Source of the DNA: Acidimicrobiia bacterium
GTDB taxonomy: Bacteria; Actinomycetota; Acidimicrobiia; Spongiisociales; ZC4RG35
DNA length: 64,000 nt
Reading direction: 5' to 3'
NCBI GenBank assembly: GCA_050742015.1
Contig: JBOGEV010000281.1
Span: 6,141 to 70,140 of the forward strand
Shown: positions 4,969 through 25,377 of the stretch, piece by piece
How positions within the stretch are numbered: position 1 is the first letter of the stretch
How the letters are laid out: each line of letters begins with the position of its first letter
Position numbers and translations under genes: made by a program
Notes under the pieces: generated by a model
Database searches by the model: none
What the model was told of the DNA's origin: nothing
The model's input: only the letters and a program-made list of their open reading frames with translations

Positions 4969-7900
4969 ATGAGCAGCCTCGATCTGCACCACTCCCTGTA
5001 TTTGCCGCGCTACCTCATCGAGTGGCAGATGCGAGCCGGCGCCTCCGATCATGAGCTGGTGGAGGGGACCCTGCTCTTCGCCGACATATCCGGATTCACG
5101 ACGCTCTCGGAACAGCTGGCGACCCGGGGACGGATTGGGTCGGAGCACATCACGGACGTGCTCAACGGCGCCTTCTCCGAGCTCCTCGATGTCGCGGCCC
5201 TGGACGGCGGCGACCTCCTCTCCTTCGGTGGCGACGCGCTGCTCGTCTTGTTCCACGGGAACCAGCACGCCGAGCGTGCGGCTCACTCGGCGTTCGAGAT
5301 GCGCGCCGCGCTCGACGAGTATCAGAAGACATCGAGCCCGGTGCCCCTGGCCATCTCTATCGGGGTCGCCTCCGGCATGATCGCCCTCCTCCTGGCCGGT
5401 TCGACCAGCCGAGAGTTGATAATCGTCGGCCCGGTGGTCGACGACCTGGTCGAGATCGAGAGCCTGGCCGATGCCGGCGAGATTCTGCTGGCGCCATCAA
5501 CTGCGGCGCTGCTCGACGACGAGGTGGTCGGAGCGACCAAGGGCCACGGGGTGGTCCTCGACAACGCGCCCGAGGCCGACGAGCACGAGCACGAGCCGCC
5601 CGAAGAAGCCCACATTGACCCAGCCGTCGCCTTCGATGGCTACTTGCCGGCACCGCTTCGCAAGCACCTGACTCTCACCTTCAACGAGGGTGAGCATCGC
5701 CTGGCCAACGTCGCGTTCGTCGTGTTGGCCGGCCTGGGCGCCATCACCGAGAGCCGTGGACTCGGCGGCGCCGCCCAGGATCTCGATCGCGTCGTGGGGG
5801 CGGTGCAGGACATCGCAGATCGGTTCGGTGTGAGTTTCCTGGCCAGTGATGTCGCCGCCGACGGCGTGAAGTTGATCCTGGCCACAGGTGTGCCCGAGCG
5901 CACGGACGCCGAAGAGGATCGGATCCTGCGGGCCGTGGGTGAGATCTCCCAACTCGAGACCTCGTGCGTGGTCACGGCGGGAGTGGCCCGAGGCAACGTC
6001 TTTGCCGGGGACCTCGGCTCCCGCACCCGACGGGTCTACACGATCATCGGAGACACGGTGAATCTGGCAGCGCGGCTGGCAACGGCAGCAAGCCCGGGAG
6101 ATGCCCTGGTGACCGAATCGATCCTCGACCGGGCCAAGAGCCTTTTCGACGTCACCCGACTTCCGCCAATGACCCTCAAGGGGATCAGCAAGCCGCTGGC
6201 CCCGTACCGCCTGGGTGCGATGATCGGCTCCGGAGCCGGGCGAGCCGCCCCCCGCTATCCCCTCATTGGTCGTGACGCAGAGCTGAGCGTTCTGATCCAG
6301 GCGTCCGACGATGCCGTGAGGAGCCAGGGCTCGGTGATCGATCTGATCGGACCGGCGGGTATCGGAAAGACCCGATTGCTTCAGGAGATGATCGACCGGG
6401 TCGACCTTCGGTTGGTCTACGCGGCCGGCGAGCCATATGAGACGGCAACCGCCTTCCATGTCGCCGGCCAGATCCTTCGCGGCGCCCTGGATCTCCCAGA
6501 ACACAAGGACTCCGACGAGCTTGGCGGATTGCTGCTCGATGCGATCGGGCAGATGGCGCCGCAGCTCATCCCTTGGGCTCCTCTGCTTGCCCGTGTCGCC
6601 GGGGCCCGGGTGGCGATGACAGCCGAGGTCGCAGACTTGGGAGATTCGTTCCAGACCCAGAAGGCCAACGAAGTCGTCGAGGGCTTGCTGGGGACCGTGC
6701 TTACCGAGCCAACCCTCATCATCGTCGACTCCGCCGAATGGGCCGATGCCGCTTCGCTCGACACAATCGAACATCTCCTGGGAGATGTCTCATCGCGGCC
6801 TTGGCTGACGATCATCAGCCGTCGCCCGGGCGACACCTGGCCCGCGATCCCCGACGCGATCTCCCTGGAGCTCGGGGGACTTGCCCCCAACGACATCCGA
6901 AGCCTCCTGGCCCACGCCGTTGGCGAGGCCGAGCTGGCCGTCCCCGTCCTCGACAAGATCGCCCTGCGGTCCGGTGGCACCCCCTTCTTTCTGCTGGCCC
7001 TGGCCCGAGCCGCCATGGACGGCGACGACACGCTTCCCGAGAGCATCGAGGCCGCCGCGGCGGCGCGCGTCGACCGCCTCGATCTCAAAGACCGGCGGAT
7101 GCTGCGTTACGCCGCCGCCCTCGGACGCCAATTCAACGTCGACATGCTCGCCGATTCCGCCGGCGAGCTGGCGCCGATGCTGGACGACCGAGCGGTGTGG
7201 GACCGACTCGGCGAGTTCCTGGAGGTCACGACGACGGGGACCGTGCGCTTTCGCCAGCCCATCATGCGGGATGTCGCCTACTCGGGTCTTCCCTACGGGA
7301 GACGCATCGAGCTTCACGCTGTCATCGGCGAAGCTCTGGAGCGACGGGCCCGCCAACGGCCCGAGCGATACGCCGAGTTGCTCTCCCTGCACTTCGCAGA
7401 AGCACAGGACGATGCCAAGACCTGGACCTATGCGGTCATGGCGGCAGAGCGGGCCAGTCGAAAGCATGCACCGGTGGTGGCCGTTGAGCACTATCGAAGA
7501 GCGCTCGCCGCGGCACGAAAGCAGCCCGATGTGGTGCCGGCCGCCGAGGTCGCCGACGCCGCCGAGGCCCTGGGTGACGTCGCAGACCGGGCGGGGCTCC
7601 TCGACGAAGCGTGGGCGGCATATGAGGAAGCGGACGCCCTTGCCGGGCATGAACCGATTCGAAAGGGACGACTGCTCCGGAAACAGGCCATGGTCAAGGA
7701 GAAGCTCGGAGATTACGGGACTGCGCTCGAGTTGCTCGACGAGGGCCTCGAGCTCCTGAATGGCACCGAGCCCTCCTCCGAGGTGCAGCAAGAGCGATTG
7801 GACGCCCAATTGCTCTATGCCGGTGTACTCAACCGCAAGGGAGAGAACGAGCAGAGTGTCGAGTGGTGTCTGCTGGCGCTCGAGGACGCCGAGCGGGCCG

Positions 7901-8778
7901 GATACGAAGCCGGAGTGGCTCATGCCTCCAACCTGCTCGAAACCAACTACACCGATTTGAACCATCCGGAGCGCGGCTCAGCCTATGGGAGAGCGCTCGA
8001 GATCTACCGGGGCCTCGGCGACCTGGTTGGTGAGGCCAAAGTCCTCAACAACCTCGGCTACAACGACTACTTCCTCGGTGACTGGTCGGCAGCGGCCGAG
8101 CATTGGGAAGCGAGCGCGACCGCCTCCTCACGCGCGGGCGACATCGTCACTGCGGCCATGGTGATGAACAACCTTGCAGAGATCGACATCGACCGAGGGC
8201 TGCTCGAAGATGCCACCCCACGACTCGAGGAAGCCATGCGCATCTGGCGGGGGGCGCGATTCCCGCTGGGTGTCGCCTTCGTGCACGCCAATCTGGGGCG
8301 GGTCGACGGGCGGGCCCACCGCCCGGACCGCGCCGCGGAGCATCTCGACGCCGCCGAGCGGACCTTCTCCGAGGTCGGCAGCACACACGGTGTCCTCGAT
8401 GTCCGGATGCGGCGCATCGAGGCCTGGCTGGTGGAGGGTGATTGGCCACGGGCCCTCCCCGCCATCGACGAGGCCCTGAACGAAGCCGAATCGCTGGACG
8501 GATCGACGGTGCTCCGCGCCGGGATGCACCGTCTGCGCGGGCTCGGGCTCCTCCAGGCATCCCGCCCGGTCCCGGCACGAGAGGCGCTGGAGACCTCGCT
8601 GGCGCTCGCCGTCGAGGCACAAGCGAGGTTCGAGGAAGGGCTCACACTCCACGCCCTCTCGGTGTGGGCGGCCACCACGGGCGCGGAGGATCTCTGGGCC
8701 GAGGCGGGCCGGGCCATCCTCGACGACCTCGGAGTGGTCAGCCCCCCTCCGATCCCGGCCACCGCTCAGCATCGCTAG
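4969..8778 (+). CDS. Tandem class III nucleotidyl cyclase domains + P-loop NTPase + TPR region (STAND-type signalling protein, no HTH)
   Basis: ORF 4756..8778; I placed the start at ATG 4969 (MSSLDLHH). Cyclase domain 1 has LLFADISGFTTLSE...FGGDALLVLFHG. Domain 2 has GVKLILATG...YTIIGDTVNLAARLATAA. Walker A is LIGPAGIGKTRLL. The C-terminal half is helical and TPR-like. Confidence 0.85.
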   Translation: MSSLDLHHSLYLPRYLIEWQMRAGASDHELVEGTLLFADISGFTTLSEQLATRGRIGSEHITDVLNGAFSELLDVAALDGGDLLSFGGDALLVLFHGNQHAERAAHSAFEMRAALDEYQKTSSPVPLAISIGVASGMIALLLAGSTSRELIIVGPVVDDLVEIESLADAGEILLAPSTAALLDDEVVGATKGHGVVLDNAPEADEHEHEPPEEAHIDPAVAFDGYLPAPLRKHLTLTFNEGEHRLANVAFVVLAGLGAITESRGLGGAAQDLDRVVGAVQDIADRFGVSFLASDVAADGVKLILATGVPERTDAEEDRILRAVGEISQLETSCVVTAGVARGNVFAGDLGSRTRRVYTIIGDTVNLAARLATAASPGDALVTESILDRAKSLFDVTRLPPMTLKGISKPLAPYRLGAMIGSGAGRAAPRYPLIGRDAELSVLIQASDDAVRSQGSVIDLIGPAGIGKTRLLQEMIDRVDLRLVYAAGEPYETATAFHVAGQILRGALDLPEHKDSDELGGLLLDAIGQMAPQLIPWAPLLARVAGARVAMTAEVADLGDSFQTQKANEVVEGLLGTVLTEPTLIIVDSAEWADAASLDTIEHLLGDVSSRPWLTIISRRPGDTWPAIPDAISLELGGLAPNDIRSLLAHAVGEAELAVPVLDKIALRSGGTPFFLLALARAAMDGDDTLPESIEAAAAARVDRLDLKDRRMLRYAAALGRQFNVDMLADSAGELAPMLDDRAVWDRLGEFLEVTTTGTVRFRQPIMRDVAYSGLPYGRRIELHAVIGEALERRARQRPERYAELLSLHFAEAQDDAKTWTYAVMAAERASRKHAPVVAVEHYRRALAAARKQPDVVPAAEVADAAEALGDVADRAGLLDEAWAAYEEADALAGHEPIRKGRLLRKQAMVKEKLGDYGTALELLDEGLELLNGTEPSSEVQQERLDAQLLYAGVLNRKGENEQSVEWCLLALEDAERAGYEAGVAHASNLLETNYTDLNHPERGSAYGRALEIYRGLGDLVGEAKVLNNLGYNDYFLGDWSAAAEHWEASATASSRAGDIVTAAMVMNNLAEIDIDRGLLEDATPRLEEAMRIWRGARFPLGVAFVHANLGRVDGRAHRPDRAAEHLDAAERTFSEVGSTHGVLDVRMRRIEAWLVEGDWPRALPAIDEALNEAESLDGSTVLRAGMHRLRGLGLLQASRPVPAREALETSLALAVEAQARFEEGLTLHALSVWAATTGAEDLWAEAGRAILDDLGVVSPPPIPATAQHR

Positions 8779-8887: not shown

Positions 8888-11800
8888 ATGGGAGCTTCTG
8901 CGACGACGAGCCGGATGACGTCGCTGATGACGGCGCTGGCGGTCGTGGTCGGTGTCGTGTTCATCGCTCCGGCGCCGACCGCGGCGGCGGCGACCGATTG
9001 GACGGTAGGCCCGAGTGGTGACTTCCCGTCCCTGAGCGACGCCCTGGCCAGCGGCTCGGTCATCTCAGGAGACCGGCTCCTCGTCGCCCCGGGCACCTAC
9101 CCGGGTTCGTTGGTCATCGATCGAAACCTCGCCATCGAGGCTGACGGCGGGCAATTCACCATCCAGGGAACCGGTGGAAGTGTCGTGACCGTCCAGCCCG
9201 GAGTCGGTGTGGCCATCACCGGGGCCGAGATCGTGGGCGGCACCGGGACCGCGGAGCTCGTGCCCGACTGTGGCGGGCCCGGAGGGCCCGATTGCACCCG
9301 GGCCAAGGGTGGCGGGATCCTCAACTTCGGGACCCTCAACCTGACCGGCACCCTGGTCGCCGACAACGTCGTCGATCTCCCGGGCGACTTCGTGCCCAAC
9401 AATGGCGCCGGCATCTACAACGAGGCCGGGGCCAACCTGACCATCGACGGTTCGTCCGTGATCGAGGGCAACACCGCGGCGTACCAAGGCGGGGGGATCT
9501 TCAACAACGGCGGGGTGGTCGTGATCGATGCCTCGACCATCGAGGGGAACGGGGTGATCTACGCCGGGTCGCTCTTCGAGAATCGTGGTGGGGGCATCTT
9601 CTCCGAAGCCGGCACGGTGACCATCACCAACACCGGGTTCTACGAGAACGTCGCTGAGCGAGACGGGGGGGCATTGGCGGTGTCGGGAGGCACGGTGAGC
9701 GTCACCGACTCCGAGTTCGGCCGGAGCGACCTGACCGGTGGGAACTCGACGCTGGCCACCAATCTCGGTCTTGGGGCGGTGTTGTTCACCGAAGGCGGCA
9801 CCGTCACCTTCGAGCGGGTGACTGCCACGGGCAACGACGCCGGGTTCGGCGGGGTCGCCTCCCTCAACGGCGGCACGTTCAACGTCCTCAACAGCACCTT
9901 CAGCGGGAACCACGCCCGCCAGACCGGTGGTGCGATCTCGTCACTCACCTCGAACCTCAACGTGGTCAACAGCACCATCAGCTCCAACACCTCGGGCGGC
10001 AACAGCGGTGCGATCTTCAGCGCCAGCGGCTCTGCGGTCACCTTGCGCAACGCCACGATCTACGGCAATTCAGCAGTGGAATTCCCGGGCGGCATCCGCA
10101 GCAACGGCGGCACCACGGAGCTCTACAACACGATCCTCGCCGGGAACGTCTCCGACGCCTCGGGCACCCCGACACCCGACGATTGCGACGACGACGGCGC
10201 TGGTCTGATCTTCTCGTCGGGCGGGCACAACGTCTTCGGTGACATCTCCGGCTGTGTGCTGACAACGACGACCGGGGATCAGACCGGTGTCAACGACCCT
10301 GAGCTGGGACCACTGTTCGGCAATGGCGGGGCGACACCGACCCACCATCCGCTGCCGGGGAGCCCGGTCATCGATGCCGGGAACTCGGCTGTGCCGGGGA
10401 GCGGTGGCGGAGCCTGTGAGCCCTTCGACCAGCGCGGAGTGGAGCGACCGGTAGGCGAGCAGTGCGATGTCGGGTCGGTGGAGTCCGTTGCCCCGATCCA
10501 GGCGGCAATCGACGCCGCCCCGGCCGGGGGCACGGTTTTGGTGCCCGCCGGGACCTACCCGGAGAACCTGGTCATCGGAAAGGACCTCGACCTGGTAGCG
10601 GACGGCGCGGTGACCGTGGACGGCGGCGCGGCCGGCCCGGTGGTGAGTGTCGCCGGTGCCACCGTCCTCATCGACGGCTTGACCCTCACCAATGGGCTGA
10701 GCGACAGCGGTGGCGGGATCAGCAGCGGCAGCGGCAGCTCACTGACACTCGTCGACGTGCAGGTGACGGGGAACGTGGCTACGACCACGGGAGGCGGTCT
10801 CCATCACGTCGGCAACGAGCTCAGCATCACCGGTGCCACCTTCTCGACCAACCAGGGCACGGGCAACGGCGGGGCGATCTTCACCGACAGCGCTTCGCTG
10901 ACCTCGATCACCGACAGCACTATCTCGGACAACGAGTCCTTCGATCACGGTGGCGGGATCTACGCGACCGGGGCCCTTCTCGTCGAGAACACCATCGTCG
11001 AGCTCAACCGGTCGGGTGACTTCGGTGGTGGGATCCATGCCGGCTCGTCGGCATTCATCACGGGATCGCTGATCGAGAGGAACGCGTCGAGCAGCCGTGG
11101 CGGCGGGCTCTACGCAACCGGAAGCTTCGAGCTGTCGCAGAGCACTGTCGAGGCGAACGTGTCATTCCTGGGCGGAGGGGTCGCCGACTTCGGGGCCGGG
11201 CCGTCTTTCATGCACGACACCACGATCAGCGGCAACCTCGGAGCCGATGAGGGCGGCGGGCTCTACAAGGGGGTGGACGGCAACCTCACCCTGGTCAACG
11301 TCACCATCGCCGACAACGACGCCGCGGAAGGGACCGCGATCGGAGGCGGGATCGCGATGGCGCCCGTCGCCAACGGGTCGATCCTGCTGCGTAGCTCACT
11401 GGTCGCAGGAAACACCGCGACCACGTTCCCCGACTGCGAAGGTGAGGTCGGCGGCAGCTTCAACCTGCTCGGCGCCGGCGACACCACCGGAACCGGATTC
11501 CCGGTCGAAGGCTGCGGGTTGACCGACGGTGTCGACGGCAACCAGGTCGGCTATCTCGACTCTCCGATCGATCCCCTCATCGGCCCCCTCGCCGACAACG
11601 GGGGAAGCCAACTCACTCACGCCCTCCTCCCCGGCAGCCCCCCAATCGACGCCGGCGATCCGGTCGCGCCCGGCAGCAGCGAGGTGGGCTGCACAGTCCT
11701 CTCCCAGAACGGCGTCGATCGTGCCGCGGGCGGTCCCGGGAGCTGTGACATCGGTGCGTTCGAGCTTGCGGCCGGGGACCTGGTCTCGGTTTCCTTCGTC

Positions 11801-14800
11801 GTCGACAACCCGACGCCCGCCGCCGGCGTCTCATCGATCCCGACCGCCGATGTCCCCGCTTCCGCCCTGACTGCGGGCGGCGCGGTCAATCAGGGATCGG
11901 TGATCGCCAACACCGGGATCGGGACCATCGTCGACTCGCCGATCAACTCCATCCCGATCAACTCCATCCCGATCAACTCGATCTACCCCCAGGGAACCCC
12001 GATCAACTCGATCCTGCTGGTCGGTGCGCCGATCAACTCCATCCCGATCAACTCCATCGACCTTGCGGCCAGCCCGATCAACTCGATCCCGATCAACTCG
12101 ATCCCGATCAACTCCATCGGCGAGATCATCGATTGCGGCGTCTTCGACTGCGCCGCTCCCGGTCTGACTTTCGGCCAGGTGCCACCGGAGGCCTACATCG
12201 GGACCTTCGGACAGCTGATGCACCTGCTCATCAACGAGACGGACGAGCTGGACGGGGCGACCCTCGCCGACATCGTCGCCGGCCTCCCCCCGGCCACCTC
12301 CCTCGCCGACCTCCTCGGCCTTCTCATGCCGCCCGAGGAGTACCCATGGCAGCGGATGGACCTGGACGCCTCGCGTCTGGCGAGCTTCTCGACGACGCCG
12401 GGCACCGTCCGGTACACCGCCTCCCTGGACCTCTCGACCGGCGCCCCCCTCAACGACCTGGAGGTCGCGGTGACCCTGGCGCCGGGGTTCAACTACGTGC
12501 CGGGATCGACCACCTACCTGCCGGCGCCCCCGCCGGGCGCCCCCGGCGATCCCGTGATCGATGGCTCCGTGCTGACGTGGTCGATACCCGGCGTCGCCGA
12601 CCTCTCCACACTCGACCTCTCCTTCGCCGCCACCACCGGTCTTCGTCTTGGCCCGGTCGCCACCGGTCTCGACGCGGCGGTTCCGGCGTCCGGTGGCGTC
12701 GCCTCGGCATCGGCAACCACGTCGATCGTGGAAGCGTTCGAGCCAAACGACACGGTGGCCCAGGCCACTGTCGCGTCGGTCGACAACATCTACGTCACCC
12801 ACATCTCCTCCGGCACCGACCTCGACTTCTACCGGCTGGAGAACGTGACCTCCGGCTCGGTGATATCGGCCGAGTTGGCCAGCCTCCCGGCCGACTACGA
12901 CCTGGTGATCTACGGGCCGGCCCAGCCACCGCTGCGGGGGGAGCCGGAGCGGACCGTGATCGGAGTCGAGGACGGCCCCATCGACCTCCTCTCTCCCGAT
13001 GAGAGCCAACCCGAGGTCATCGAAGACATAGTGCTCGCCGACCTGCCGGTGGTGGCTCTGTCCACGAATCGGGGCGACTCCAACGAGCAGGTGAAAACCT
13101 CGCCCGTGGCGAGAAGCGGCGACTACGTCATCCAGGTGAGCGGCTACAACGGAGCAACCAGCACCGATCCCTACACCCTTCGTCTCTCGGTCGATCCCGG
13201 GACAGGTGGCGACGCATGCACCGCACTCCCCCCAACCGGAGGCACCCCAGGCTCACTGCCTGGATCCCTTCCCTCAGGGGTCAACACGCTGTTCCTGGTC
13301 AACCAGCAGCGCTACGAGGCGACTCATGGCGTGGCTGCGCTCGCCGACCTTCTCGGGGCCCTGGGCTCGGTGGCTGATCAGCCGGACCTCGGTGTGATCG
13401 GCGCCGTGATCCCGGTCGAAGGCGATGCGGCCGTGGCCGCCGTCTATTCGTCCCTGGACGCCGAGCCCTGCTCGGTCGAGGCCGCCAACAACGTGGCCTC
13501 GGCGATCGCCGGGCTGGTCGACGGGTATCGAGATTCCAATCCCGACATCCAATATGTGGTCATCGTCGGTGGTGACGACCAGGTGCCCCAGTTCCGGCTG
13601 CCTGACGAGACGCGAATCGCCAACGAGACCGGCTACGCCTCGGCTCTTCGGGGGGCAGTCACGCCGCAGACCGCGGCCCTGGCCGCCGGGACCTTCCTCA
13701 GCGACGACCCCTACGGCGACGCCCACCCGCTCCTCGCCAACGGACGTGAGATCTTCGTTCCGGAGATCGCCCTGGGCCGACTGGTGGAGACCCCGGGTGA
13801 GATCGTCGGCACCCTGGAGCGATTCCTCACCTTCAACGGGCTTCTCGACCCGACCACGACTACCAGCGCCTTCGTCAGCGGTTACGACTTCCTCACCGAC
13901 GGCGCCGAGGCGGTGGCCTCCGAGCTCGTCGACGCCGGGCGCCCCATCACATCGCTGGTCTCTGAGGTCTGGGATCGTGACGGGCTGATCGCCGGCTGGC
14001 TCGACGGGTCACACACTGTCACCTCGGTAAACGCCCACTTCGACCACAACCGCGCCCAACCGGCCGCCCTGTCATCGGGGTTCGTGACCACGGGTGATGT
14101 CACCGGCTCGGGGTCCGACACCCTGGAGCGGGCCATCGTCTTCTCGATGGGATGTCACTCCGGACTCAGCTTCCCCGACGTCCAGATCGGTGGCGACCCC
14201 CTCGCCGCCGACTGGGCCCAGACGCTGTCCGCCCAGGGAGCCAGCTTCATCGGGAACACCGGGTACGGGTACGGCGAGACCGACACGGTCGCCCTCTCCG
14301 AGGACCTGCTGCGACGCTTCGCCGGGAATCTCGACGGCGGGCTCACCGTCGGCCAGGCGCTACAGATCGCCAAGCAGACCTACGCCGGCTCGTCGCTGGT
14401 CTACGGGGCATATGACGACAAGGTGCTGATGATCTCCACCTTCTACGGGCTGCCCTTCTATCGGGTAGGTGGCGGGGGCGGCCCGGTGCCGGCGCCGGCG
14501 GCGCCGGCGCTCGGGTTCGACTCGGTGGTCGGGCTTCCGACCGCGACTATCGACACGGTGCTCGACCTCGGGACCAGCCTGGTGATCGACACCGGGGACC
14601 GTGGCTCTTTCTATGCCCACGTCGGGGAGGGCGGTCTTCCCTCCGCCCAGGTGACCCCGTTCCGGCCGATCCAGCCCAAGATCGAGATCGATGTCACCCA
14701 GGGCGGCGGACTGGTTGCCCACGGGGCGCTCATCACCGGCCTCCAGTCCACGGACGTCACCCCGTTCGACCCGGTCGTCGCTCGCCCGGTGGTCGATCTC

Positions 14801-16906
14801 GGAGCCAACGAGCCGGAGCCCATCGCGCCCGGCGTCTTCCCTTCCGCCCTGCAGACCGTGAACCGGTTCACCACCGCGGTCGGTGATCGCGACCAGCTGG
14901 TCCTGGTCCCCGGCCAGTTCCGGAGCACCACCGCGACCACGGGGATCCAGCGGTTGTTCACCACCATCGGCACCACCGTGTTCTACGGACCGGGAACCGG
15001 TGACTTCACCCCTCCGGTGATCATCAGCTCGACCGCCATCGAAGGAGCAGGGGCCGTGACATTCACGGTCGACGTAGAAGACACCGACGGTGAGGTGCGC
15101 AAGGTGACCGTGCTCTTCTCGGATGTCGCTGCGGGCGGGACATGGACCGAGGTCGTGTTGGTCCAGGGCACCGATGGGTCCTGGAGCGGGGCGGCGCCGG
15201 CGGCCCCCGGGGAGAAGGAGTTCTTCGTCCAGGCAGTCGATGACTCGGGCAATGTGGCCGTCAGCTCGAACAAGGGGGAGCTGTTCCTGTCCCGGCTCGC
15301 GGCCGCCCCCTCCGGCGGCCTGGTCGCTCTCGCCGGCGACCTCGTCGACGGGTGGTACGCGGGGACTGCCACCGTGACTCTCACCGCGCCTCCCGGCGGT
15401 GTCGTCGCCTACGAACTCGACGGCGCGGCTCTCGTCCCATATGCGGGCCCGTTCGACGTGACCGGGGAGGGAGTGCACACGCTCATCGCCTACTCATCGA
15501 CCGGTGACTCGGAGACGATCACCATCCCGATCGACGCCGAAGCGCCTGTCGTCACCTCCCCGATCCAGGGTGCGGTCTTCACCACAGGTCAGGTCGTCAC
15601 CGTTGACTTCGCATGCAGCGATGCGGCCTCCGGGGTAGTCAGCTGTGAGAGCACCCTCCCGCTCGGCTCCGCCCTCCCCACCGCCGGGTCCGGGTCGTTC
15701 CAGGTCACCGCGGTCGACGCCACCGGCAAGTCGACGACCGAGACCATCGCCTACACCGTGGTCAGCGCCCCCGTCGCCAATATCGTGGGAGACCCGGGAA
15801 CCGTGAACGAGGGAACCGCGGTGTCCTTCAGCTCGGGGACATCGGGAGCAACAGCGTGGGCCTGGACCGCTACCCGGGACGGTGGGGTCGTCGCCAGCGG
15901 AGCCGGGGAAACCTTCGATTTCGTCGCAGAGGACGATGGCGACTATCTGGTGACCCTGACCGTCACGGTGGGCTCGGCGATGAGCGCTCCGGCAACCGTC
16001 GGGTTCACAGCCAACAACGTCGCCCCCACCATCGAGGTCGACGGTGCGGGCACGGTCGACACAGGAACGTCTTACACGATCTTCCTCGGCCCCGTTACAG
16101 ACCCCGGCACCGACAATGCCTTCAGCTTCGACCTGGATTGGGGTGACGGGACGGTGGAGACCGTGGACCGACTGGGCCCGTTCTCCCACACCTTCACCGC
16201 GCCGGGCACGCTGCAGGTCTCCGTTGGCGTGACCGACGAGGACGGCACCTTTGCCGACGCGGGCGCGCTCGACTTGGTCGTCACCGAGCCGGGACCTCCG
16301 ATGTGCCGGGGTCGACTCGCCACCATCGTGGGGACACCCGGCGACGACGTCCTCAACGGGACGAGCCCCAATGACGTCATCGTCGGCCGCGGCGGCAACG
16401 ACATCATCAACGGGGGAAGCGGCAACGACGTCATCTGCTCCGGCGACGGCAACGACACGATCGACGGCGGATCCGGGAACGACACCATCGACGCCGGCAG
16501 CGGCAACAACCACATCGACGGCGGGTCCGGAAACGAGGCCATCTTCTCCGGAGCCGGAGACGACATCATCGACGGCGGGAGCGGCACCGATGTCGTCAGC
16601 TCCGGCGATGGTGCCGACCGTATCGAGGGCGGGTCGGGCAACGACACGCTCTCGGGCGGGGAGGGCGACGACGAAGTCGATGGTGGCGCCGGAAACGACG
16701 AGGTTCAGGGTGGCGGCGGGGCCGACACGATCCGTGGTGGGTCCGGCAACGACCGTCTGTTCGGCGGGGCCGGCACCGACTTCATCGAAGGCGGGGCCGG
16801 CAACGACCATCTGGACGGTGGTCCCGGAGTCGACGTCCTCGATGGGGCGTCGGGCCGGGACAGGTGTCTCAGCGGTGACGTACTGCTCTCCTGCGAGCTC
16901 CCTTGA
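8888..16906 (+). CDS. Giant secreted multidomain protein (2672 aa): 2x right-handed beta-helix modules, PINSI repeats, DUF11-like and PPC domains, C25/gingipain-like module, Ig/PKD domains, C-terminal RTX Ca-binding repeats
   Basis: ORF 8843..16906. The start is ATG 8888, after GAGGGAG. Signal peptide: MGASATTSRMTSLMTALAVVVGVVFIAPAPTAAAA. Two modules of GGGI/GGAI beta-helix turns each end in LGPLxxNGGxTxTHxLLPGSPxIDAG...CDxGxxE. The PPC domain reads EPNDTVAQAT..LDFYRL..DYDLVIYG..YTLRLS. The peptidase-like part has YVVIVGGDDQVPQF, SVNAHFDH and IVFSMGCHSG. PKD-like part: DLDWGDGT...HTFTAPG. There are about 20 GGxGxD nonapeptides. Confidence 0.9.
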   Translation: MGASATTSRMTSLMTALAVVVGVVFIAPAPTAAAATDWTVGPSGDFPSLSDALASGSVISGDRLLVAPGTYPGSLVIDRNLAIEADGGQFTIQGTGGSVVTVQPGVGVAITGAEIVGGTGTAELVPDCGGPGGPDCTRAKGGGILNFGTLNLTGTLVADNVVDLPGDFVPNNGAGIYNEAGANLTIDGSSVIEGNTAAYQGGGIFNNGGVVVIDASTIEGNGVIYAGSLFENRGGGIFSEAGTVTITNTGFYENVAERDGGALAVSGGTVSVTDSEFGRSDLTGGNSTLATNLGLGAVLFTEGGTVTFERVTATGNDAGFGGVASLNGGTFNVLNSTFSGNHARQTGGAISSLTSNLNVVNSTISSNTSGGNSGAIFSASGSAVTLRNATIYGNSAVEFPGGIRSNGGTTELYNTILAGNVSDASGTPTPDDCDDDGAGLIFSSGGHNVFGDISGCVLTTTTGDQTGVNDPELGPLFGNGGATPTHHPLPGSPVIDAGNSAVPGSGGGACEPFDQRGVERPVGEQCDVGSVESVAPIQAAIDAAPAGGTVLVPAGTYPENLVIGKDLDLVADGAVTVDGGAAGPVVSVAGATVLIDGLTLTNGLSDSGGGISSGSGSSLTLVDVQVTGNVATTTGGGLHHVGNELSITGATFSTNQGTGNGGAIFTDSASLTSITDSTISDNESFDHGGGIYATGALLVENTIVELNRSGDFGGGIHAGSSAFITGSLIERNASSSRGGGLYATGSFELSQSTVEANVSFLGGGVADFGAGPSFMHDTTISGNLGADEGGGLYKGVDGNLTLVNVTIADNDAAEGTAIGGGIAMAPVANGSILLRSSLVAGNTATTFPDCEGEVGGSFNLLGAGDTTGTGFPVEGCGLTDGVDGNQVGYLDSPIDPLIGPLADNGGSQLTHALLPGSPPIDAGDPVAPGSSEVGCTVLSQNGVDRAAGGPGSCDIGAFELAAGDLVSVSFVVDNPTPAAGVSSIPTADVPASALTAGGAVNQGSVIANTGIGTIVDSPINSIPINSIPINSIYPQGTPINSILLVGAPINSIPINSIDLAASPINSIPINSIPINSIGEIIDCGVFDCAAPGLTFGQVPPEAYIGTFGQLMHLLINETDELDGATLADIVAGLPPATSLADLLGLLMPPEEYPWQRMDLDASRLASFSTTPGTVRYTASLDLSTGAPLNDLEVAVTLAPGFNYVPGSTTYLPAPPPGAPGDPVIDGSVLTWSIPGVADLSTLDLSFAATTGLRLGPVATGLDAAVPASGGVASASATTSIVEAFEPNDTVAQATVASVDNIYVTHISSGTDLDFYRLENVTSGSVISAELASLPADYDLVIYGPAQPPLRGEPERTVIGVEDGPIDLLSPDESQPEVIEDIVLADLPVVALSTNRGDSNEQVKTSPVARSGDYVIQVSGYNGATSTDPYTLRLSVDPGTGGDACTALPPTGGTPGSLPGSLPSGVNTLFLVNQQRYEATHGVAALADLLGALGSVADQPDLGVIGAVIPVEGDAAVAAVYSSLDAEPCSVEAANNVASAIAGLVDGYRDSNPDIQYVVIVGGDDQVPQFRLPDETRIANETGYASALRGAVTPQTAALAAGTFLSDDPYGDAHPLLANGREIFVPEIALGRLVETPGEIVGTLERFLTFNGLLDPTTTTSAFVSGYDFLTDGAEAVASELVDAGRPITSLVSEVWDRDGLIAGWLDGSHTVTSVNAHFDHNRAQPAALSSGFVTTGDVTGSGSDTLERAIVFSMGCHSGLSFPDVQIGGDPLAADWAQTLSAQGASFIGNTGYGYGETDTVALSEDLLRRFAGNLDGGLTVGQALQIAKQTYAGSSLVYGAYDDKVLMISTFYGLPFYRVGGGGGPVPAPAAPALGFDSVVGLPTATIDTVLDLGTSLVIDTGDRGSFYAHVGEGGLPSAQVTPFRPIQPKIEIDVTQGGGLVAHGALITGLQSTDVTPFDPVVARPVVDLGANEPEPIAPGVFPSALQTVNRFTTAVGDRDQLVLVPGQFRSTTATTGIQRLFTTIGTTVFYGPGTGDFTPPVIISSTAIEGAGAVTFTVDVEDTDGEVRKVTVLFSDVAAGGTWTEVVLVQGTDGSWSGAAPAAPGEKEFFVQAVDDSGNVAVSSNKGELFLSRLAAAPSGGLVALAGDLVDGWYAGTATVTLTAPPGGVVAYELDGAALVPYAGPFDVTGEGVHTLIAYSSTGDSETITIPIDAEAPVVTSPIQGAVFTTGQVVTVDFACSDAASGVVSCESTLPLGSALPTAGSGSFQVTAVDATGKSTTETIAYTVVSAPVANIVGDPGTVNEGTAVSFSSGTSGATAWAWTATRDGGVVASGAGETFDFVAEDDGDYLVTLTVTVGSAMSAPATVGFTANNVAPTIEVDGAGTVDTGTSYTIFLGPVTDPGTDNAFSFDLDWGDGTVETVDRLGPFSHTFTAPGTLQVSVGVTDEDGTFADAGALDLVVTEPGPPMCRGRLATIVGTPGDDVLNGTSPNDVIVGRGGNDIINGGSGNDVICSGDGNDTIDGGSGNDTIDAGSGNNHIDGGSGNEAIFSGAGDDIIDGGSGTDVVSSGDGADRIEGGSGNDTLSGGEGDDEVDGGAGNDEVQGGGGADTIRGGSGNDRLFGGAGTDFIEGGAGNDHLDGGPGVDVLDGASGRDRCLSGDVLLSCELP
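11939..12117 (+). repeat. In-frame 15-bp repeat CCGATCAACTC(C/G)ATC x9, encoding the pentapeptide PINSI
   Basis: Units start at 11939, 11954, 11969, 11999, 12029, 12044, 12073, 12088 and 12103, in clusters of 3+1+2+3. Protein: SPINSIPINSIPINSIYPQGTPINSILLVGAPINSIPINSIDLAASPINSIPINSIPINSIGE. Confidence 0.9.
16331..16862 (+). repeat. RTX / hemolysin-type calcium-binding nonapeptide repeat block (coding)
   Basis: GTPGDDVLNG..GRGGNDIINGGSGNDVICSGDGNDTIDGGSGNDTIDAGSGNNHIDGGSGNE...GGAGNDHLDGGPGVDVLDG. Confidence 0.9.
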
Positions 16907-16909
16907 CCA

Positions 16910-19015
16910 TTACAGCAAAGAGCGAATGGTGCGGTTGGCTGCCGTGAGCTTCTCGGCGAGACGGGCTGCGATCAGTCGTTGCAGGGCGAGAGCCTGAACC
17001 GGGTCGCGCTCGCAGAACTCGACGAACCATTCCTCTGTGAAATGGCGCACGACACATTCGGTGTCGCACACCACGGTGGAGTTTGCCGGCTGGCCGGTGA
17101 GATGGCTCAACTCCCCGATCACAGAGCCGGGGAGGAGAACGGCCCGTCGATAGGCCATATCGTCATTGGCCGGGACCACGGAGGCCCGGCCCGACTCGAG
17201 GTAGAAGACACCGGCGCTCTGCTCCCCTTCGGTGATCATGAGGTCCCCTGCCGCCATCTCGATGGCGGGACAGGCTTCCCATTGCGAGTCGACGGCCGAT
17301 TCCGCGGTCAGGGCGAGTGGCTTCGCCCTGGATCCGAGGACCTCCTCCTCATATGTCTCCAGGGCGTGGTCGAGGTCGACTTCGTAGCGGATGAACCCAT
17401 GGTCGAGTGTGGGCTGGAGAGTGGCCTTCATCTCAGGGTCGGCACCACAGAAGGTCACCTCCAGTTGATGCTCCTCCGCCATGCGGCCGAGACGGTCGAA
17501 GGATGCCGCCACCGAGGAGTCCATCCCGGTGACCCGTCGAAAGTCGAGGATCACCACGGCAATGTGGGGCTCGAGCCGCAAACCCTCCCGAACCGATTTC
17601 ACGAGCTGTTCTGCGCTGCCAAAGAACAGGAACCCCTGGAGCTCCATGACGACCGCGCGATCGCCCCGTTCGACGAGGGTGGCTTCGTCGGCGGCGTTGC
17701 GCTGGACGTTGCTGCGCCGCACCCGTGCCGTGGTCACCGCCCTCACCGCCGGCGTCTTGCTGTAGCGGAACACGAAGAGGACGGTGGCGGCAACGACCCC
17801 GAGACCGACTCCCTGGATGAAACCGAACACCGCCACCGCGGCGACGATCCCGATGATCACCGCGTGTTCCACAAGACCAACCCGATGGCGGATGTCCCAG
17901 ACCCAGGAGAGAAGGAAGTCGAGGCCGATGCCGAGGAGCAGCCCACCCGGGATGAAGACCGGCAGCAAGCTGACCACGTCGGCTCCCACCGCGAGCACGA
18001 CAGCTCCGATGACTGCGGCGATGAGGGGAGGAATCCGGCTGGCGCCACCGATCCGACGCCCGATCACAGTGTCGCCGAGGATCACATAGCCGGGCAGTCC
18101 CGCGAACGGCGCAGCCAACATCAGGCCGGCCCCGGTCGACAAGAGCTCACGGTCCACGTCGATGTCGACCTTGAACGTGTGCTCGAGGGCCCCGGTGTTC
18201 AGGAGTAGGCCCAATGGGACCAGCATCGCCATCACGACGACGGCGGGAAGCTGTCCGAAGACCGCCCCCCAGTCCGCCGACCACAACTCGGCTATGACGC
18301 CCAGGTCCGCCAGGCTGCCGGTCGGGAACGGCCCGAGGAGCAAACTCCGGGCCATGCCCTCGACCCGGTCGATGCCGGCGATGGCGGCCGCGACGTGGTA
18401 GCCGACGAAGCCGACGGCGAGGACAACCACCGAAGCCAGCGACGACCGACCGCCTCGACCGAGTGCGACCAGGAGCAAGGCGACCAGCAAGCCGGGCACC
18501 GTCCGGAGGCCCAGCTCTGCAGCCCCTCCACCGGCATCGATCAGGATGTCGGCGCCGGCGATTGTCAGCACGACACCGGTGCCCCCGAGAAAGCCCGCGA
18601 CCACTGGGAAGGGCACGTAGCGAACCAATCCCCCCAATCGGAAGTGGCCCATGACCAGCAGAAGGGCGCCGGTGAACGCAGTGGTGAGGATGATGAACGC
18701 CGCCAGCGTCGCCATGGGCTCCTCGGCCGTGGCGACCAGACCGACCGCAGCAGCTCCGATGATCACAGTCGGGGCATCCTGAACACCGGCGGCCAGCCCG
18801 CGGAATGAGCTGGTGAGCGCGGTGACAGCGGCAAGGACTACGAAGCTGGCCAGGGCCCACCCGGCGCCACGCCCCAACTCCGGCGCCAGGTCTCCATAGA
18901 ACACGAGAGTGGCGAAGGAGAGCGCCAGCGACACCCCCATCGCCCCCAGCACGAGCCCGGCAGCGAGTCGACGCGGGAAGGCAGCCCGGAACGAAACCCC
19001 TGCTCCTGTGGTCAT
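16910..19015 (-). CDS. SulP/SLC26-family anion transporter with C-terminal STAS and cyclic-nucleotide-binding-like domains
   Basis: ORF 16910..19087; I tentatively placed the start at ATG 19015 (MTTGAGVSF). It has a polytopic core, a STAS-like region (VVILDFRRVTGMDSSVAASFDRL) and a CNB-like region (MITEGEQSAGVFYLESGRASV...VIGELSHLTGQPANSTVV). Confidence 0.85.
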   Translation of the reverse strand: MTTGAGVSFRAAFPRRLAAGLVLGAMGVSLALSFATLVFYGDLAPELGRGAGWALASFVVLAAVTALTSSFRGLAAGVQDAPTVIIGAAAVGLVATAEEPMATLAAFIILTTAFTGALLLVMGHFRLGGLVRYVPFPVVAGFLGGTGVVLTIAGADILIDAGGGAAELGLRTVPGLLVALLLVALGRGGRSSLASVVVLAVGFVGYHVAAAIAGIDRVEGMARSLLLGPFPTGSLADLGVIAELWSADWGAVFGQLPAVVVMAMLVPLGLLLNTGALEHTFKVDIDVDRELLSTGAGLMLAAPFAGLPGYVILGDTVIGRRIGGASRIPPLIAAVIGAVVLAVGADVVSLLPVFIPGGLLLGIGLDFLLSWVWDIRHRVGLVEHAVIIGIVAAVAVFGFIQGVGLGVVAATVLFVFRYSKTPAVRAVTTARVRRSNVQRNAADEATLVERGDRAVVMELQGFLFFGSAEQLVKSVREGLRLEPHIAVVILDFRRVTGMDSSVAASFDRLGRMAEEHQLEVTFCGADPEMKATLQPTLDHGFIRYEVDLDHALETYEEEVLGSRAKPLALTAESAVDSQWEACPAIEMAAGDLMITEGEQSAGVFYLESGRASVVPANDDMAYRRAVLLPGSVIGELSHLTGQPANSTVVCDTECVVRHFTEEWFVEFCERDPVQALALQRLIAARLAEKLTAANRTIRSLL

Positions 19016-19230
19016 CGGGGCAACAGTATCCCGAGCGGTCGGCGACCCCGGGCCGCACCGTCTTTGGCGAGCCGGGGCCGGTGCCATCCGTCACCGGTCC
19101 GGTCATCAGGGACTAGTCATAACGAGCGTGTCTCCAAAGGGTCCTTTAACCATCGCTGACTGTGCCCGAAGATATCGCTCAGAACGTGCCTCGGTGCGTG
19201 GGGTTGGGGGCAGCAGGGAGGCCAGATCGG

Positions 19231-19291: not shown

Positions 19292-20455
19292 TCAGCAGAT
19301 GGAGCGCACCAGCGGATAAGGGTTGACCGCTCCACCACCCCCCGGGTGGTACTCGAAGTGGAGATGGGGAAGGAAATCGGGGGCATTCCCCGAAGACCCG
19401 TTGTACCCGATGACCTCGCCCTCGGCCACGCTCTGCCCGGCGCTGATCTCGGCGTAACTCTCCAGGTGGGCGTAGAAGAATGTGTCGCCGTTGTCCGAGC
19501 GGAGCCAGATGGCGAGACCACTCAGGTTGCCACTGCTCAGACGCTGGATCGTGCCGGAGTAGATCGCAACCAGCGGCGTGTTCCTTGCCGCGATCATGTC
19601 GACCCCCTGGTGGGCCCGGCCCCCAGACCTCGAGTCACCCCACGAGTCGGAGAAGGACACCGCACCGGCGACCGGGCAGGTCCCGCCGCCGCCTCCCGGA
19701 GGTGGAGGCGGTGCAGGTGGGGCGGTTGTGGCGGACCCTTCGGGAGCGGTCGTCGTGGTGGCATCGTCCGAGCCGCCATCGGTTGTTGTCGCGGTAGCGG
19801 GAGCCGTGGTGGTCGTTGCGTTGCGCGCCGCCTCCTCCGCCGCTCGACGACGAGCCTCCTCCTCGGCCCGTCTCCGGGCCTCCTCCTCGGCAGCCCTCCT
19901 TGCAACCAGCCCGTCGTATACGGCCTGGGCTTCGACCAGACGGCCCTGGAGCTCGGCGGCCTGATCCTCCAACTGCGCAGTCAGGACCTCTTGCTCGGCC
20001 GAGGCCTCGGCGAGGCGGACGGTTTGACGGTCCAGTTCGGTGCGAAACGAGCGAAGCTGGTTGACGACGTCGGCGTCGACCCCGGTCACGTTCCTGAGAT
20101 ACTCACGGCCCGCCCCATAGCTCTCCTCACTGGCCGAGAACAGCACTCGCATCGAGCTCGCCGTAGACGAGCCCATATACAGCTCGACCGCCACGTCCTC
20201 CAGTTTCTTCTCGGTTTCGGCGATCTGGACCCGGGCCAGTTCGATGGAGGCACCGAGGTCGGAGATCTCCTTGTCCAATGCGAACTGGCGGGCCCAGGCT
20301 GCCTGGACTTCGTCCCCCAGGGCCTGGGAATCGGCCATCACCTGGTTCACCTCTCGTCGGGCGCGGTCGATGTCCTCGTCGGTGACCTGGGCCAGGGCCG
20401 GAACGGCCAGAGCCATGACGAGTAGGGCCAACAGAGTCCTGGCGAAGCGTGTCAC
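19292..20455 (-). CDS. Secreted M23 family metallopeptidase (peptidoglycan endopeptidase-like) with an N-terminal coiled coil and Thr/Pro linker
   Basis: ORF of 387 aa. Signal peptide: [22 protein letters not shown]. It has a heptad-like Glu/Ala/Arg-rich region. The HQGVD and HLHFE motifs form the M23 HxxxD/HxH zinc site. Confidence 0.9.
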
Positions 20456-25128: not shown

Positions 25129-25377
25129 TCAGCCGACCAAGGGCATGCTCCTTCTCTCCATTTCGGTGAGACCTCCCCAGATACCGAAAGGCTCCCTGAT
25201 CTGAAGGGCATGTGTGGTGCATGGCACCCGCACAGGACACACCCCGCAGATCGCTTTGGCCTTCATCTCCCTGCGCTCCCGCTCGTCCTTGCGCTCGAAC
25301 GTCGAAGGCGGAAAGAAGAGGTAGGCATGGCTCCCCCGACACAGCGCGTCGAGCTGCCAATCGTCCATGCTGGACAA
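25129..25377 (-). CDS. WhiB-family [4Fe-4S] transcription factor
   Basis: ORF of 82 aa. It has four Cys (C13...CGVCPVRVPC) and GIWGG followed by a basic tail. Confidence 0.9.
   Translation of the reverse strand: MSSMDDWQLDALCRGSHAYLFFPPSTFERKDERERREMKAKAICGVCPVRVPCTTHALQIREPFGIWGGLTEMERRSMPLVG

Follow-up and report, generated by a model that had tools for sequence, protein, structure and literature searches.

A 2672-aa protein encoded in a 64,000-nt stretch of DNA from an Acidimicrobiia bacterium (hereafter the window) is, on balance, probably a Sec-exported extracellular protein that joins binding modules, a gingipain-like core and a calcium-binding tail, and that serves as a protease/adhesin in the manner of a gingipain polyprotein. 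The preliminary description of this DNA regarded the architecture as a new mosaic, a view that we have abandoned: the central 1400 aa are the hallmark of a very large family, with at least 1556 sequence clusters at E ≤ 1e-30 in Actinomycetota and Chloroflexota. To our knowledge, proteases of gingipain type have been described almost exclusively in Bacteroidota, where they serve as virulence factors and depend on the type IX secretion system. The family represents a much larger, unstudied gingipain-like branch in soil and aquatic Actinomycetota and Chloroflexota. Its plan differs: the pentapeptide array has a unit specific to each lineage, and a cyclase-STAND-TPR gene is an almost obligatory neighbor, and in the searchable literature we found neither feature described.

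Gene and domain organization

The gene is an uninterrupted plus-strand open reading frame (GTG 8843 or ATG 8888 to the stop codon at 16904-16906). From ATG 8888, which has GGGAG 9 nt upstream, it encodes 2672 aa (265 kDa, very acidic, pI ~4), and this start is shared with the NCBI-derived homolog P0002 and with P0003. The host is actinobacterial: the window carries a WhiB gene at 25129-25377, and the closest relatives of the giant protein are found in Acidimicrobiia metagenome-assembled genomes (MAGs). Acidimicrobiia, which belong to the Actinomycetota, are Gram-positive, single-membrane bacteria. There are no tRNA genes in the window. The protein comprises the following features.

8888-8992, + strand: signal peptide of Sec type, aa 1-35, predicted to be cleaved after AAA
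8993-10486, + strand: parallel beta-helix module 1 with choice-of-anchor-Q domain 1 (aa 470-533) at its end; NF041518, Chlam_PMP
10487-11782, + strand: parallel beta-helix module 2 (NosD-like, PMP repeats) with choice-of-anchor-Q domain 2 (~aa 895-960)
11939-12118, + strand: PINSI pentapeptide array (aa 1018-1077), 12 in-register pentads, 9 of them exact PINSI
11951-11968, no strand: deletion junction, at which 534 nt (178 aa) of the L001/P0002 gene are missing in frame
12119-12403, + strand: Cys pair C1083/C1088 and helical linker; family motif LADLLxLLxPPEEYPW, conserved in the alignment
12404-12730, + strand: Ig-like beta-sandwich (the "DUF11-like" segment, aa ~1173-1281), AlphaFold2 pLDDT 85-94
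12731-13198, + strand: PPC-fold/collagen-binding-domain-like beta-sandwich (aa ~1282-1437), beginning EPND; Foldseek
13199-14497, + strand: gingipain-like (C25, clan CD) peptidase domain; PF01364, Foldseek, conserved His/Cys
14036-14038 and 14153-14155, + strand: His1717 and Cys1756, putative catalytic pair
14498-15007, + strand: Ig-like beta-sandwich after the catalytic domain, as in gingipains (model core residues 596-756, all-beta)
15008-15757, + strand: further Ig-like domains (aa 2041-2290); weak sub-threshold matches to Big_13, Big_7, CHB_HEX_C_1 and OmpL47
15758-16297, + strand: two PKD domains (aa 2291-2470); PKD_4 50.9 bits, PKD 35.2 bits
16304-16903, + strand: Cys-capped RTX beta-roll module (PF00353), N-cap C2473...C2517, C-terminal loop C2660-x8-C2669-ELP

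Nearly all that the preliminary description had listed was recovered: an intact gene in an actinobacterial genome, a Sec-type signal peptide, two beta-helix modules with an anchor motif, the PINSI block, PPC, C25-like and Ig/PKD domains, and about 20 RTX nonapeptides on the same chain as the N-terminal signal. Read by eye rather than by a predictor, the N-terminus (MGASATTSRMTSLMTALAVVVGVVFIAPAPTAAA, then ATD) is organized into n, h and c regions like a Sec/SPI signal peptide, and neither an RR motif nor a lipobox is present in it; most full-length relatives likewise begin with a basic and then a hydrophobic stretch. The NCBIfam choice_anch_Q model (NF041518) matches the two following modules with 124.5 bits against a cut-off of 25, in two stretches at aa 470-533 and ~aa 898, where the motif IGPLADNGG begins. 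A NosD-like match (TIGR04247) spans aa 537-793, and Chlam_PMP repeats occur in module 1 and, at 29.7 bits (cut-off 20.6), in module 2. No PDB relative of the beta-helix part was found by sequence. Homologs of the N-terminal part carry PF13229 (Beta_helix), and hundreds of large beta-helix proteins share these modules. Toward the other end of the chain, the PKD matches (PF18911/PF00801) lie above the Pfam cut-off, with PKD_4 matching in two stretches.

Between the pentapeptide array and the peptidase domain, AlphaFold2 modeled the linker as short helices with low to moderate confidence. The segment that follows had been called DUF11-like. It is a confidently modeled beta-sandwich, but the DUF11 name was not confirmed: neither DUF11 (PF01345) nor any other Pfam family matched aa 966-1280 even at E ≤ 10; no significant PDB fold match to this sandwich was found either. 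The PPC assignment stands by fold: Foldseek matched the next domain to collagen-binding domains of ColH (3jqw, E 1e-5, TM 0.74) and ColG (2o8o, 1nqd) and to a PPC domain (5sv5, E 4e-4). In the protein itself, aa 1271-1440 gave no Pfam match to PPC (PF04151) at E ≤ 10, and 15 of 41 relatives do match this family (best 9.3e-6).

The gingipain-like domain and its family

The C25-like module is upheld by a Pfam match, by fold and by a conserved His/Cys pair. On the segment aa 1431-1870, PF01364 scored 27.7 bits (cut-off 23, E 2e-6), a weak similarity to C25 that covers only profile positions 264-349 of 374 and went unreported in a scan of the whole 2672-aa protein; the same family matches 29 of 41 relatives, with a best E-value of 2.8e-13. 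With the AlphaFold2 core model (pLDDT 87.6, pTM 0.91) as query, the top five Foldseek matches were the gingipains RgpB and Kgp (E 7e-11 to 1e-9, target TM 0.50-0.54, identity only 10-13 %), and the alignments to their catalytic plus Ig chains ran to 609-628 columns. Caspases and separase matched more weakly. PDB sequence searches with the core profile and with the catalytic-domain profile returned no gingipain, even at E ≤ 10; therefore, the link to gingipains rests on Pfam and fold. Across 41 sequences, His1717 and Gly1755 never vary and at least 90 % retain Cys1756 and His1757, and in a 14-sequence set both His1717 and Cys1756 are invariant. Each of the two comes after a beta-strand in the model. 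Judged by conservation and strand position, they are the putative counterpart of the gingipain dyad (His211/Cys244 in RgpB), and the domain may well have protease activity. Pfam and NCBIfam scans revealed no type IX secretion C-terminal domain, the RTX module being there instead.

It is also conceivable that the protein is purely a structural adhesin or matrix protein that does nothing but bind a surface or polymer, its C25-like domain being a non-catalytic scaffold (a pseudo-peptidase). Binding-type modules (beta-helices, Ig, PKD and RTX) do make up most of its mass, its sequence similarity to active C25 enzymes is weak, and giant RTX adhesins that contain numerous Ig-like domains are a well-known class. 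However, invariance of His1717 and retention of a G-C-H motif around Cys1756 among relatives at 35-55 % identity, in two phyla, would not be expected of a dead enzyme, and we consider such a role unlikely.

There is a small chance that the C25-like domain is a transpeptidase, sortase-type like PorU or similar to GPI transamidase, that cuts the polyprotein and links part of it covalently to a cell-envelope polymer. Clan CD includes such enzymes, namely PorU (a C25 member of the type IX secretion system), the legumain-type ligases and GPI transamidase. We saw no cell-wall anchor (LPXTG, SLH or transmembrane segment) in the 2672-aa protein, which weighs against our preferred reading and which covalent attachment by a transpeptidase would explain. 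An LPXTG-like end occurs in only 1 of 139 family members, and the protein ends are swapped among lineages while the core stays constant, both of which would suit a transpeptidase. However, direct evidence is lacking, no conserved cleavage or acceptor motif was identified, and the best structural matches are hydrolytic gingipains.

Species-representative genomes contain at least 513 family loci, and the best 80 of these are nearly all from Actinomycetota or Chloroflexota. Most members are 1500-4000 aa long, and NCBI gives members the generic label "C25 family cysteine peptidase". Their core has the order pentapeptide arrays, linker with Ig-like sandwich, PPC-fold domain, C25-like domain with its His/Cys pair, and Ig-like domain; the modules on its N- and C-terminal sides are those that vary. 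The giant protein is a rare variant, with two beta-helix/choice-of-anchor-Q modules (a type of module present in only ~8 % of the C25-core family) at its N-terminus and two PKD domains plus the Cys-capped RTX block at its C-terminus. In the literature whose full text could be searched, including a paper on STAND-based conflict systems, we came across nothing on the family, the repeat or the gene pair described below.

The pentapeptide arrays and the neighboring genes

The PINSI block is the local form of a family-wide pentapeptide array. Among 199 family proteins, 182 carry such an array, with a unit that depends on the lineage; in these we counted 101 different units, all of them fitting P-h-x-x-h. 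Positions 1, 2 and 5 are constrained (proline, hydrophobic, hydrophobic) and positions 3 and 4 are free; units are identical within one protein and differ between lineages. Conserved cysteine-containing inserts interrupt the arrays. No Pfam family, including the pentapeptide-repeat family PF00805, matched the arrays of this protein or its relatives. In an AlphaFold2 model of aa 985-1290, built on a shallow alignment, the PINSI part was not folded (pLDDT <50), and Foldseek gave no significant match to this model. Relative to the 99.7 % identical L001/P0002 gene, the window allele is 178 aa shorter inside the repeat block, and the missing segment is kept in P0002, in P0003 and in the distant relatives P0004-P0006 and L002. 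Either the repeat block is unstable or its assembly is difficult, which matters for annotating such genes in MAGs.

Two genes flank the giant gene.

4969-8778, + strand: partner gene, with tandem class III nucleotidyl cyclase domains, an AAA_16/STAND ATPase and TPR (domain matches, conserved adjacency)
16910-19087, - strand: convergent gene for a SulP transporter with STAS and cyclic-nucleotide-binding domains, ending 3 nt from the stop codon of the giant gene

The partner encodes 1269 aa from ATG 4969, in a frame open from 4756. Of 40 well-flanked loci, 36 have a homolog close to the giant gene, 29 of them at a distance of up to 1 kb and the other 7 at up to 6 kb, and all four orientations occur. 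The catalytic cyclase residues are conserved in the alignment, and the two cyclase domains look like a pseudo-heterodimer; no DNA-binding or kinase domain was found in the partner. Its partial match to TIGR03903 (E 2.6e-41) reaches 141 bits, far below the cut-off of 706. In metagenomes, roughly half of the sampled genes of the partner family lack a C25-core gene in their vicinity, so the partner is not exclusive to this system.

On the other side of the giant gene, the SulP-STAS-cyclic-nucleotide-binding arrangement is syntenic in L001. A cluster of neighboring ORFs was seen in 11 other loci, and its scanned representative is a cyclic-nucleotide-binding LuxR-type regulator. The home-made model for such neighbors, which derived from a mixed cluster, was not clean, and its count was dropped. 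A second big cluster of apparently conserved neighbors was rejected, as it comprised just shadow ORFs that run antisense to the partner gene in GC-rich DNA.

Taken together, an array, a protease and a TPR protein could also be read as a signaling system. The arrays would be a precursor from which the protease domain frees the lineage-specific pentapeptide in many copies, to be sensed by the TPR of the partner in a manner similar to Phr/Rap signaling; in Firmicutes, recognition of short secreted peptides by TPR receptors is well established. The uniformity of the units within a protein and their divergence between lineages suit this idea, as do the position of the protease domain, always downstream of the arrays, the adjacency of a TPR-containing signaling protein and the partial similarity of the partner to cyclase fusion proteins of TOMM peptide gene clusters. 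However, constraint at positions 1, 2 and 5 with freedom at 3 and 4 is what a folded repeat with a buried core, rather than a free signal, would show, and the cysteine-containing inserts break the arrays. The active site is conserved, yet no conserved residue could provide a shared cleavage site. Also, L002, a relative at only 63 % identity, has the same unit, and the partner family occurs without the giant gene as well. We find a precursor role of the arrays very unlikely. The same holds for its fullest version, a far-fetched two-gene communication in which freed copies of PINSI, or of a rotated form, would return into the cell and be bound by the partner TPR, whereupon the partner would make a cyclic nucleotide; if true, peptide signaling with a cyclic-nucleotide output would be a new route in Actinomycetota and Chloroflexota.

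The RTX tail and the route of export

The block at the extreme C-terminus consists of exactly 20 RTX nonapeptides in unbroken register (aa 2482-2661, nt 16331-16870), with a PF00353 match at E 1e-37. It is closest to CyaA (E 1e-47 against the CyaA RTX block), lipases and serralysins. After the last nonapeptide only 11 residues remain, and these form a conserved Cys-x8-Cys-Glu loop. The cysteine caps are conserved in RTX-bearing relatives and also occur in 14 of 120 small RTX proteins, from a search that returned only short RTX proteins and is useful only for the recurrence of the cap; among the capped small proteins are ones with a signal peptide from Nonomuraea and Patescibacteria. The tail is a recurrent, cysteine-capped and Sec-associated subtype, and given these conserved caps it looks like a calcium-folded beta-roll exported by the Sec route rather than a type I secretion signal. 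The protein is a clear instance of an RTX beta-roll on a Sec-exported protein of a single-membrane bacterium, and its conserved cysteine caps should help to tell a calcium-folding role of RTX repeats from a role in type I secretion. That the protein is a classical RTX protein of the type I route whose N-terminal hydrophobic stretch is no signal peptide is hardly credible and was rejected, despite 20 canonical C-terminal nonapeptides of CyaA type, in view of the clear Sec-type N-terminus common to relatives, the Gram-positive lineage (WhiB), the 11-residue Cys loop in place of a 50-60-residue secretion signal, and the lack of type I secretion genes (ABC, membrane-fusion or TolC/outer-membrane channel) among the neighbors and large ORFs of the window and L001 scanned with Pfam.

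Of the Ca-dependent surface, S-layer-like or adhesin/protease role first suggested for this protein, a calcium-dependent extracellular adhesin/protease is the most reasonable reading, and nothing speaks for an S-layer-like function. As a Sec-exported protease/adhesin, the chain would leave the cell unfolded and would fold outside it, aided by calcium on the RTX roll and by the disulfide caps. The beta-helix, Ig and PKD modules may bind a polymer or surface, and the C25-like domain would act as a protease on external proteins or, by analogy with RgpA and Kgp, on the protein itself. The cytoplasmic double-cyclase/STAND/TPR partner would most likely be a dedicated cyclic-nucleotide regulator of the giant gene.

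Comparison with known systems

For parts of the system, relatives or candidate parallels can be named. Both N-terminal modules are a good match to choice-of-anchor-Q/polymorphic-membrane-protein-type beta-helix proteins (NF041518, PF02415, PF13229), most of which, unlike the giant protein, are without a C25 core. In the Rfr-type quadrilateral beta-helix (PF00805), the 2,3,2,3 hydrophobic spacing of PINSI-type arrays would suit the inward-facing i-2 and i positions, but their proline at i-1 would be atypical. The partner shares a class III cyclase, an AAA/STAND ATPase and helical repeats with the cyclase-ATPase regulators of Actinobacteria (Mycobacterium tuberculosis Rv0386-type) and with TOMM kinase/cyclase fusions (TIGR03903), and differs from them in its two cyclase domains and in having no recognized DNA-binding or kinase domain.

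Gram-negative RTX adhesins and enzymes (LapA, MpIBP, serralysins and CyaA) have in common with the giant protein a C-terminal GGxGxDxUx block forming a calcium-bound beta-roll and, in the giant RTX adhesins, a very long chain with many Ig-like domains. However, they lack a signal peptide and are exported by the type I route through a signal after the repeats, whereas the giant protein carries a signal for Sec, a roll capped by cysteines at either end and a tail of 11 residues. MARTX and large clostridial toxins are likewise giant secreted multi-module chains with an internal clan-CD peptidase, in their case a C80 enzyme that cuts the chain into its parts, and they may serve as a working analogy for self-processing of the giant protein. 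The C80 peptidase belongs to a different family and is activated by inositol hexakisphosphate inside host cells, and nothing in the giant protein points to toxin effector modules or a eukaryotic target.

The nearest comparison is with the gingipains RgpA, RgpB and Kgp of Porphyromonas gingivalis (MEROPS C25, clan CD), which share with the giant protein a signal peptide and export, a clan-CD domain with a His/Cys pair, an Ig-like domain directly after it, and flanking modules of adhesin type. Unlike gingipains, the giant protein lacks both a recognizable prodomain at its N-terminus and the C-terminal domain of type IX secretion, belongs to a single-membrane host, and has its catalytic domain midway along its 2672 aa, where pentapeptide arrays and a PPC-fold domain precede it.

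Module organization of the giant protein

The giant gene lies in a forward-strand reading frame that runs uninterrupted between 8843 and its stop codon at 16904-16906. Its start is likely the ATG at 8888, which is preceded 9 nt upstream by GGGAG and whose position is also used as the start in a near-identical database protein (P0002); the predicted product is a 2672-aa protein of 265 kDa with a pI of ~4.05 and just 11 lysines. Judged by eye from the sequence, the n-region of residues 1-35 is basic, the hydrophobic core is 15 residues long and the cleavage-type site reads AAA↓A, with neither a twin-arginine motif nor a lipobox, and this stretch would be a Sec signal, as had been proposed. Profile scans of the whole protein and of its segments gave the following matches.

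Profile matches in the giant protein
Choice-of-anchor-Q (NF041518), two stretches: 124.5 bits vs. a cut-off of 25 (whole-protein scan)
Chlam_PMP repeats, in both beta-helix modules (segment scan)
NosD-like beta-helix, aa 537-793 (whole-protein scan)
Peptidase_C25, aa ~1749-1835: 27.7 bits vs. a cut-off of 23 (segment scan)
PKD_4: present (whole-protein scan)
Two PKD domains: 50.9 bits (segment scan)
Ig-type: weak matches (segment scan)
RTX repeats (PF00353): E 1e-37 (whole-protein scan)

The two beta-helix modules and the roughly 20 RTX nonapeptides claimed in the preliminary description were borne out, and of its "Ig/PKD domains" the PKD part held while the Ig part found weak matches. Segment-by-segment scans yielded no match to PPC or DUF11. 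In an AlphaFold2 model of aa 985-1290, the stretch aa ~1173-1281, where a DUF11-like segment had been described, forms a beta-sandwich with high confidence (pLDDT 85-94), and the PINSI part has a pLDDT below 50 and no confident structure. Foldseek returned nothing significant for this model, which, with the lack of a DUF11 match, leaves the name DUF11 unproven.

Family and host

The earlier assignment to an actinobacterial genome is upheld by a WhiB gene (25129-25377, E 4.6e-22), which marks the host as a member of the Actinomycetota, and by the source of the closest proteins and loci, which are Acidimicrobiia MAGs. The locus syntenic with the window (L001) belongs to assembly GCA_973786695.1. 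Out of 1.84 billion, a search with the core of the giant protein (aa 1280-2040) retrieved 1556 cluster representatives at E ≤1e-30, a number that rises to 2497 at the looser E ≤1e-10. Most of them span 1500-4000 aa and carry the core midway along the protein or in its C-terminal half. A word-indexed protein search, by comparison, returned hits no longer than about 1.75-fold the query: the homologs P0001-P0006 are too long to appear in the word-indexed core search, a search with the RTX tail gave short proteins only, and both sets of counts are too low for the long relatives. In species-representative genomes the core is present at no fewer than 513 loci, and the best 80 of these at least 513 are nearly all from Acidimicrobiia, Thermoleophilia, Gaiellales, Nocardioidaceae and Chloroflexota, with the cultured Nocardioides marmorisolisilvae KIS18-7 among the Nocardioidaceae carriers. 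We found no literature on the C25-core family.

The alignment of the giant protein with distant relatives (P0004-P0006, identity about 30-35%) extends from aa ~919 to ~2360; these relatives differ from it in their N-terminal inserts (lectins) and C-termini. Among 139 further representatives, a C-terminal RTX block occurs in 10, the choice-of-anchor-Q motif in 11 and an LPXTG-like end in one. With the RTX block and the choice-of-anchor-Q motif this infrequent, the giant protein's combination of modules is a rare version of a plan that is itself common. In the closest species-representative genome (L002, 3046-13924, on the Acidimicrobiia chromosome OY970227; 63% identity), the core ORF begins within a choice-of-anchor-Q motif and partner-like pieces are spread over three ORFs upstream of it, which suggests frameshifts or sequencing errors.

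The C25-like and PPC domains

The C25-like module described earlier is supported by Pfam matches, conservation and structure. Peptidase_C25 is matched by 29 of 41 family members (best 2.8e-13, Pfam), and in an alignment of the core with 40 relatives (34-56% identity) His1717 and Gly1755 are invariant and Cys1756 and His1757 are each retained in at least 90% of sequences; when the catalytic domain was aligned by itself (14 sequences), the H, G and C showed no variation. AlphaFold2 gave a confident model on the core alignment (pLDDT 87.6, pTM 0.91), whose top Foldseek matches in the PDB (E 7e-11 to 1e-9, target TM 0.50-0.54) are to the catalytic and Ig-like domains of two gingipains, RgpB and Kgp, with caspases and separase as weaker matches. 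In the model, His and Cys each follow a beta-strand, as expected of clan CD. When PDB sequences were searched with two profiles, no characterized gingipain came up; the link to these enzymes is undetectable by sequence alone, which makes the C25-like domain a branch of clan CD/C25 that is both remote and distinct. The rival readings that bear on this domain are that the giant protein is a non-catalytic adhesin, against which stand the conserved His1717 and Cys1756, and that the domain is a PorU-like transpeptidase, against which stand the gingipain structural matches.

As for the PPC assignment, Foldseek matched the N-terminal sandwich of the core model to the collagen-binding domains of ColH and ColG (E 1e-5, TM 0.74 at best) and to the pre-peptidase C-terminal domain 5sv5, and PPC is matched by 15 of the 41 family members (Pfam), but not by the window protein itself.

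Pentapeptide arrays

The PINSI block (aa 1018-1077, nt 11939-12118) consists of 12 in-register pentads, of which nine are exact. In 182 of 199 family proteins, a five-residue word recurs six times or more (median 20, maximum 111), and 101 different units were counted among these arrays. Position 1 is P in 78%, position 2 is L/I/V/F/M in 96% and position 5 is I/V/L in 79% (the rest mostly S/T); positions 3 and 4 each admit 12 residue types. Since units are uniform inside one protein and differ from lineage to lineage, the pattern indicates concerted evolution. Conserved inserts with cysteine pairs break up the family's arrays. With its hydrophobic positions constrained (spacing 2,3,2,3) and positions 3 and 4 free to vary, the unit looks like a repeat that may fold around a buried core. 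These features lead us to favor a structural role over the alternative that the giant protein belongs to a signaling system in which the pentapeptide is released.

The window and L001 genes are 99.7% identical (22 substitutions in about 8035 nt) apart from one 534-nt in-frame gap inside the 15-nt PINSI-coding repeats (window ~11951-11968 vs. L001 ~13080-13620). The 178 aa absent from the window allele include an inter-array segment conserved in the homolog P0003, L002 and the distant relatives. Either the repeats have recombined here or the assembly has collapsed across them.

The RTX tail and the export route

In the RTX block (aa 2482-2661), 20 nonapeptides follow one another without a break in register; among solved structures, the block is nearest to the RTX domain of CyaA (E 1e-47) and to lipases and serralysins. 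RTX-bearing relatives share an N-cap, C-(T/R)-I-V-G-T...D-V-I-C, and a terminal C-x(6-14)-C-E-x(0-4) loop; the corresponding cysteines of the giant protein are C2473/C2517 and C2660/C2669, and its chain ends only 11 residues after the final repeat. In a length-limited search, 14 of 120 small RTX proteins had the same terminal loop, most of them with signal peptides. These are 280-360 aa long, end in ..D.C..GE....CE(L) (e.g., P0389, P0409, P0421 and P0453) and include proteins of Nonomuraea and Patescibacteria, which points to a putative RTX subtype of its own, Sec-associated and capped by cysteines. The neighbors and large ORFs scanned contained no type I secretion genes. From the shared caps, the short trailing sequence and this absence within the scanned set, we conclude that the tail is probably a Sec-route beta-roll stabilized by calcium and disulfides. 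The same evidence led us to reject the tail as a type I secretion signal, and with it classical type I export of the giant protein.

The partner gene and its neighborhood

Genes near the giant gene include the following.
4969-8778 (+): partner gene, directly upstream; 1269 aa, two class III cyclase domains, AAA_16/STAND ATPase, TPR repeats
16910-19087 (-): SulP transporter gene with STAS and cyclic-nucleotide-binding domains, convergent with the giant gene
19292-20455 (-): M23 peptidase gene, two genes downstream of the giant gene
22016-25104 (+): selA and selB, side by side
43003-44820 (+): X-Pro dipeptidyl peptidase (S15) gene

ARAGORN found no tRNA, including tRNA-Sec, in the 64-kb window. 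The partner protein has a partial, sub-threshold match to TOMM kinase/cyclase fusion proteins. Across the partner homologs, domain 1 keeps the metal-binding Asp residues and domain 2 the Asn/Arg pair, a pattern suggesting one pseudo-heterodimeric cyclase active site. We clustered the flanking ORFs of 80 genome loci and counted pairing over the 40 with at least 4 kb on both sides: a partner homolog lies <1 kb from the giant gene in 29 and 1-6 kb away in 7, and is absent in 4. The pairing (36/40) spans two phyla and all four relative orientations, with homologs in loci L009-L081 that are 29-39% identical to the window's partner. In the reverse test, a C25-core gene was near 7 of 13 metagenome partner homologs with at least 6 kb on both sides, so the partner family is broader than its pairing with the giant gene. 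One metagenome contig (L119, 1253-13422) carries three cyclase-AAA-TPR paralogs in tandem without a C25-core gene; expansion of the partner family thus occurs independently of the giant gene as well.

The ends of the SulP gene and the giant gene are 3 nt apart, leaving no room for a terminator. Near the gene pair of another locus (L023, 2897-3781, -) is a 294-aa regulator with cNMP-binding and LuxR-type (GerE) DNA-binding domains; it is the scanned representative of a neighbor-ORF cluster from 11 other loci and, as a candidate, could read out the signal made by the cyclase.

Taken together, the best-supported interpretation is that the giant protein is a Sec-exported, calcium-stabilized, multi-module protease/adhesin that would be under cyclic-nucleotide control and may act in the manner of a gingipain polyprotein.
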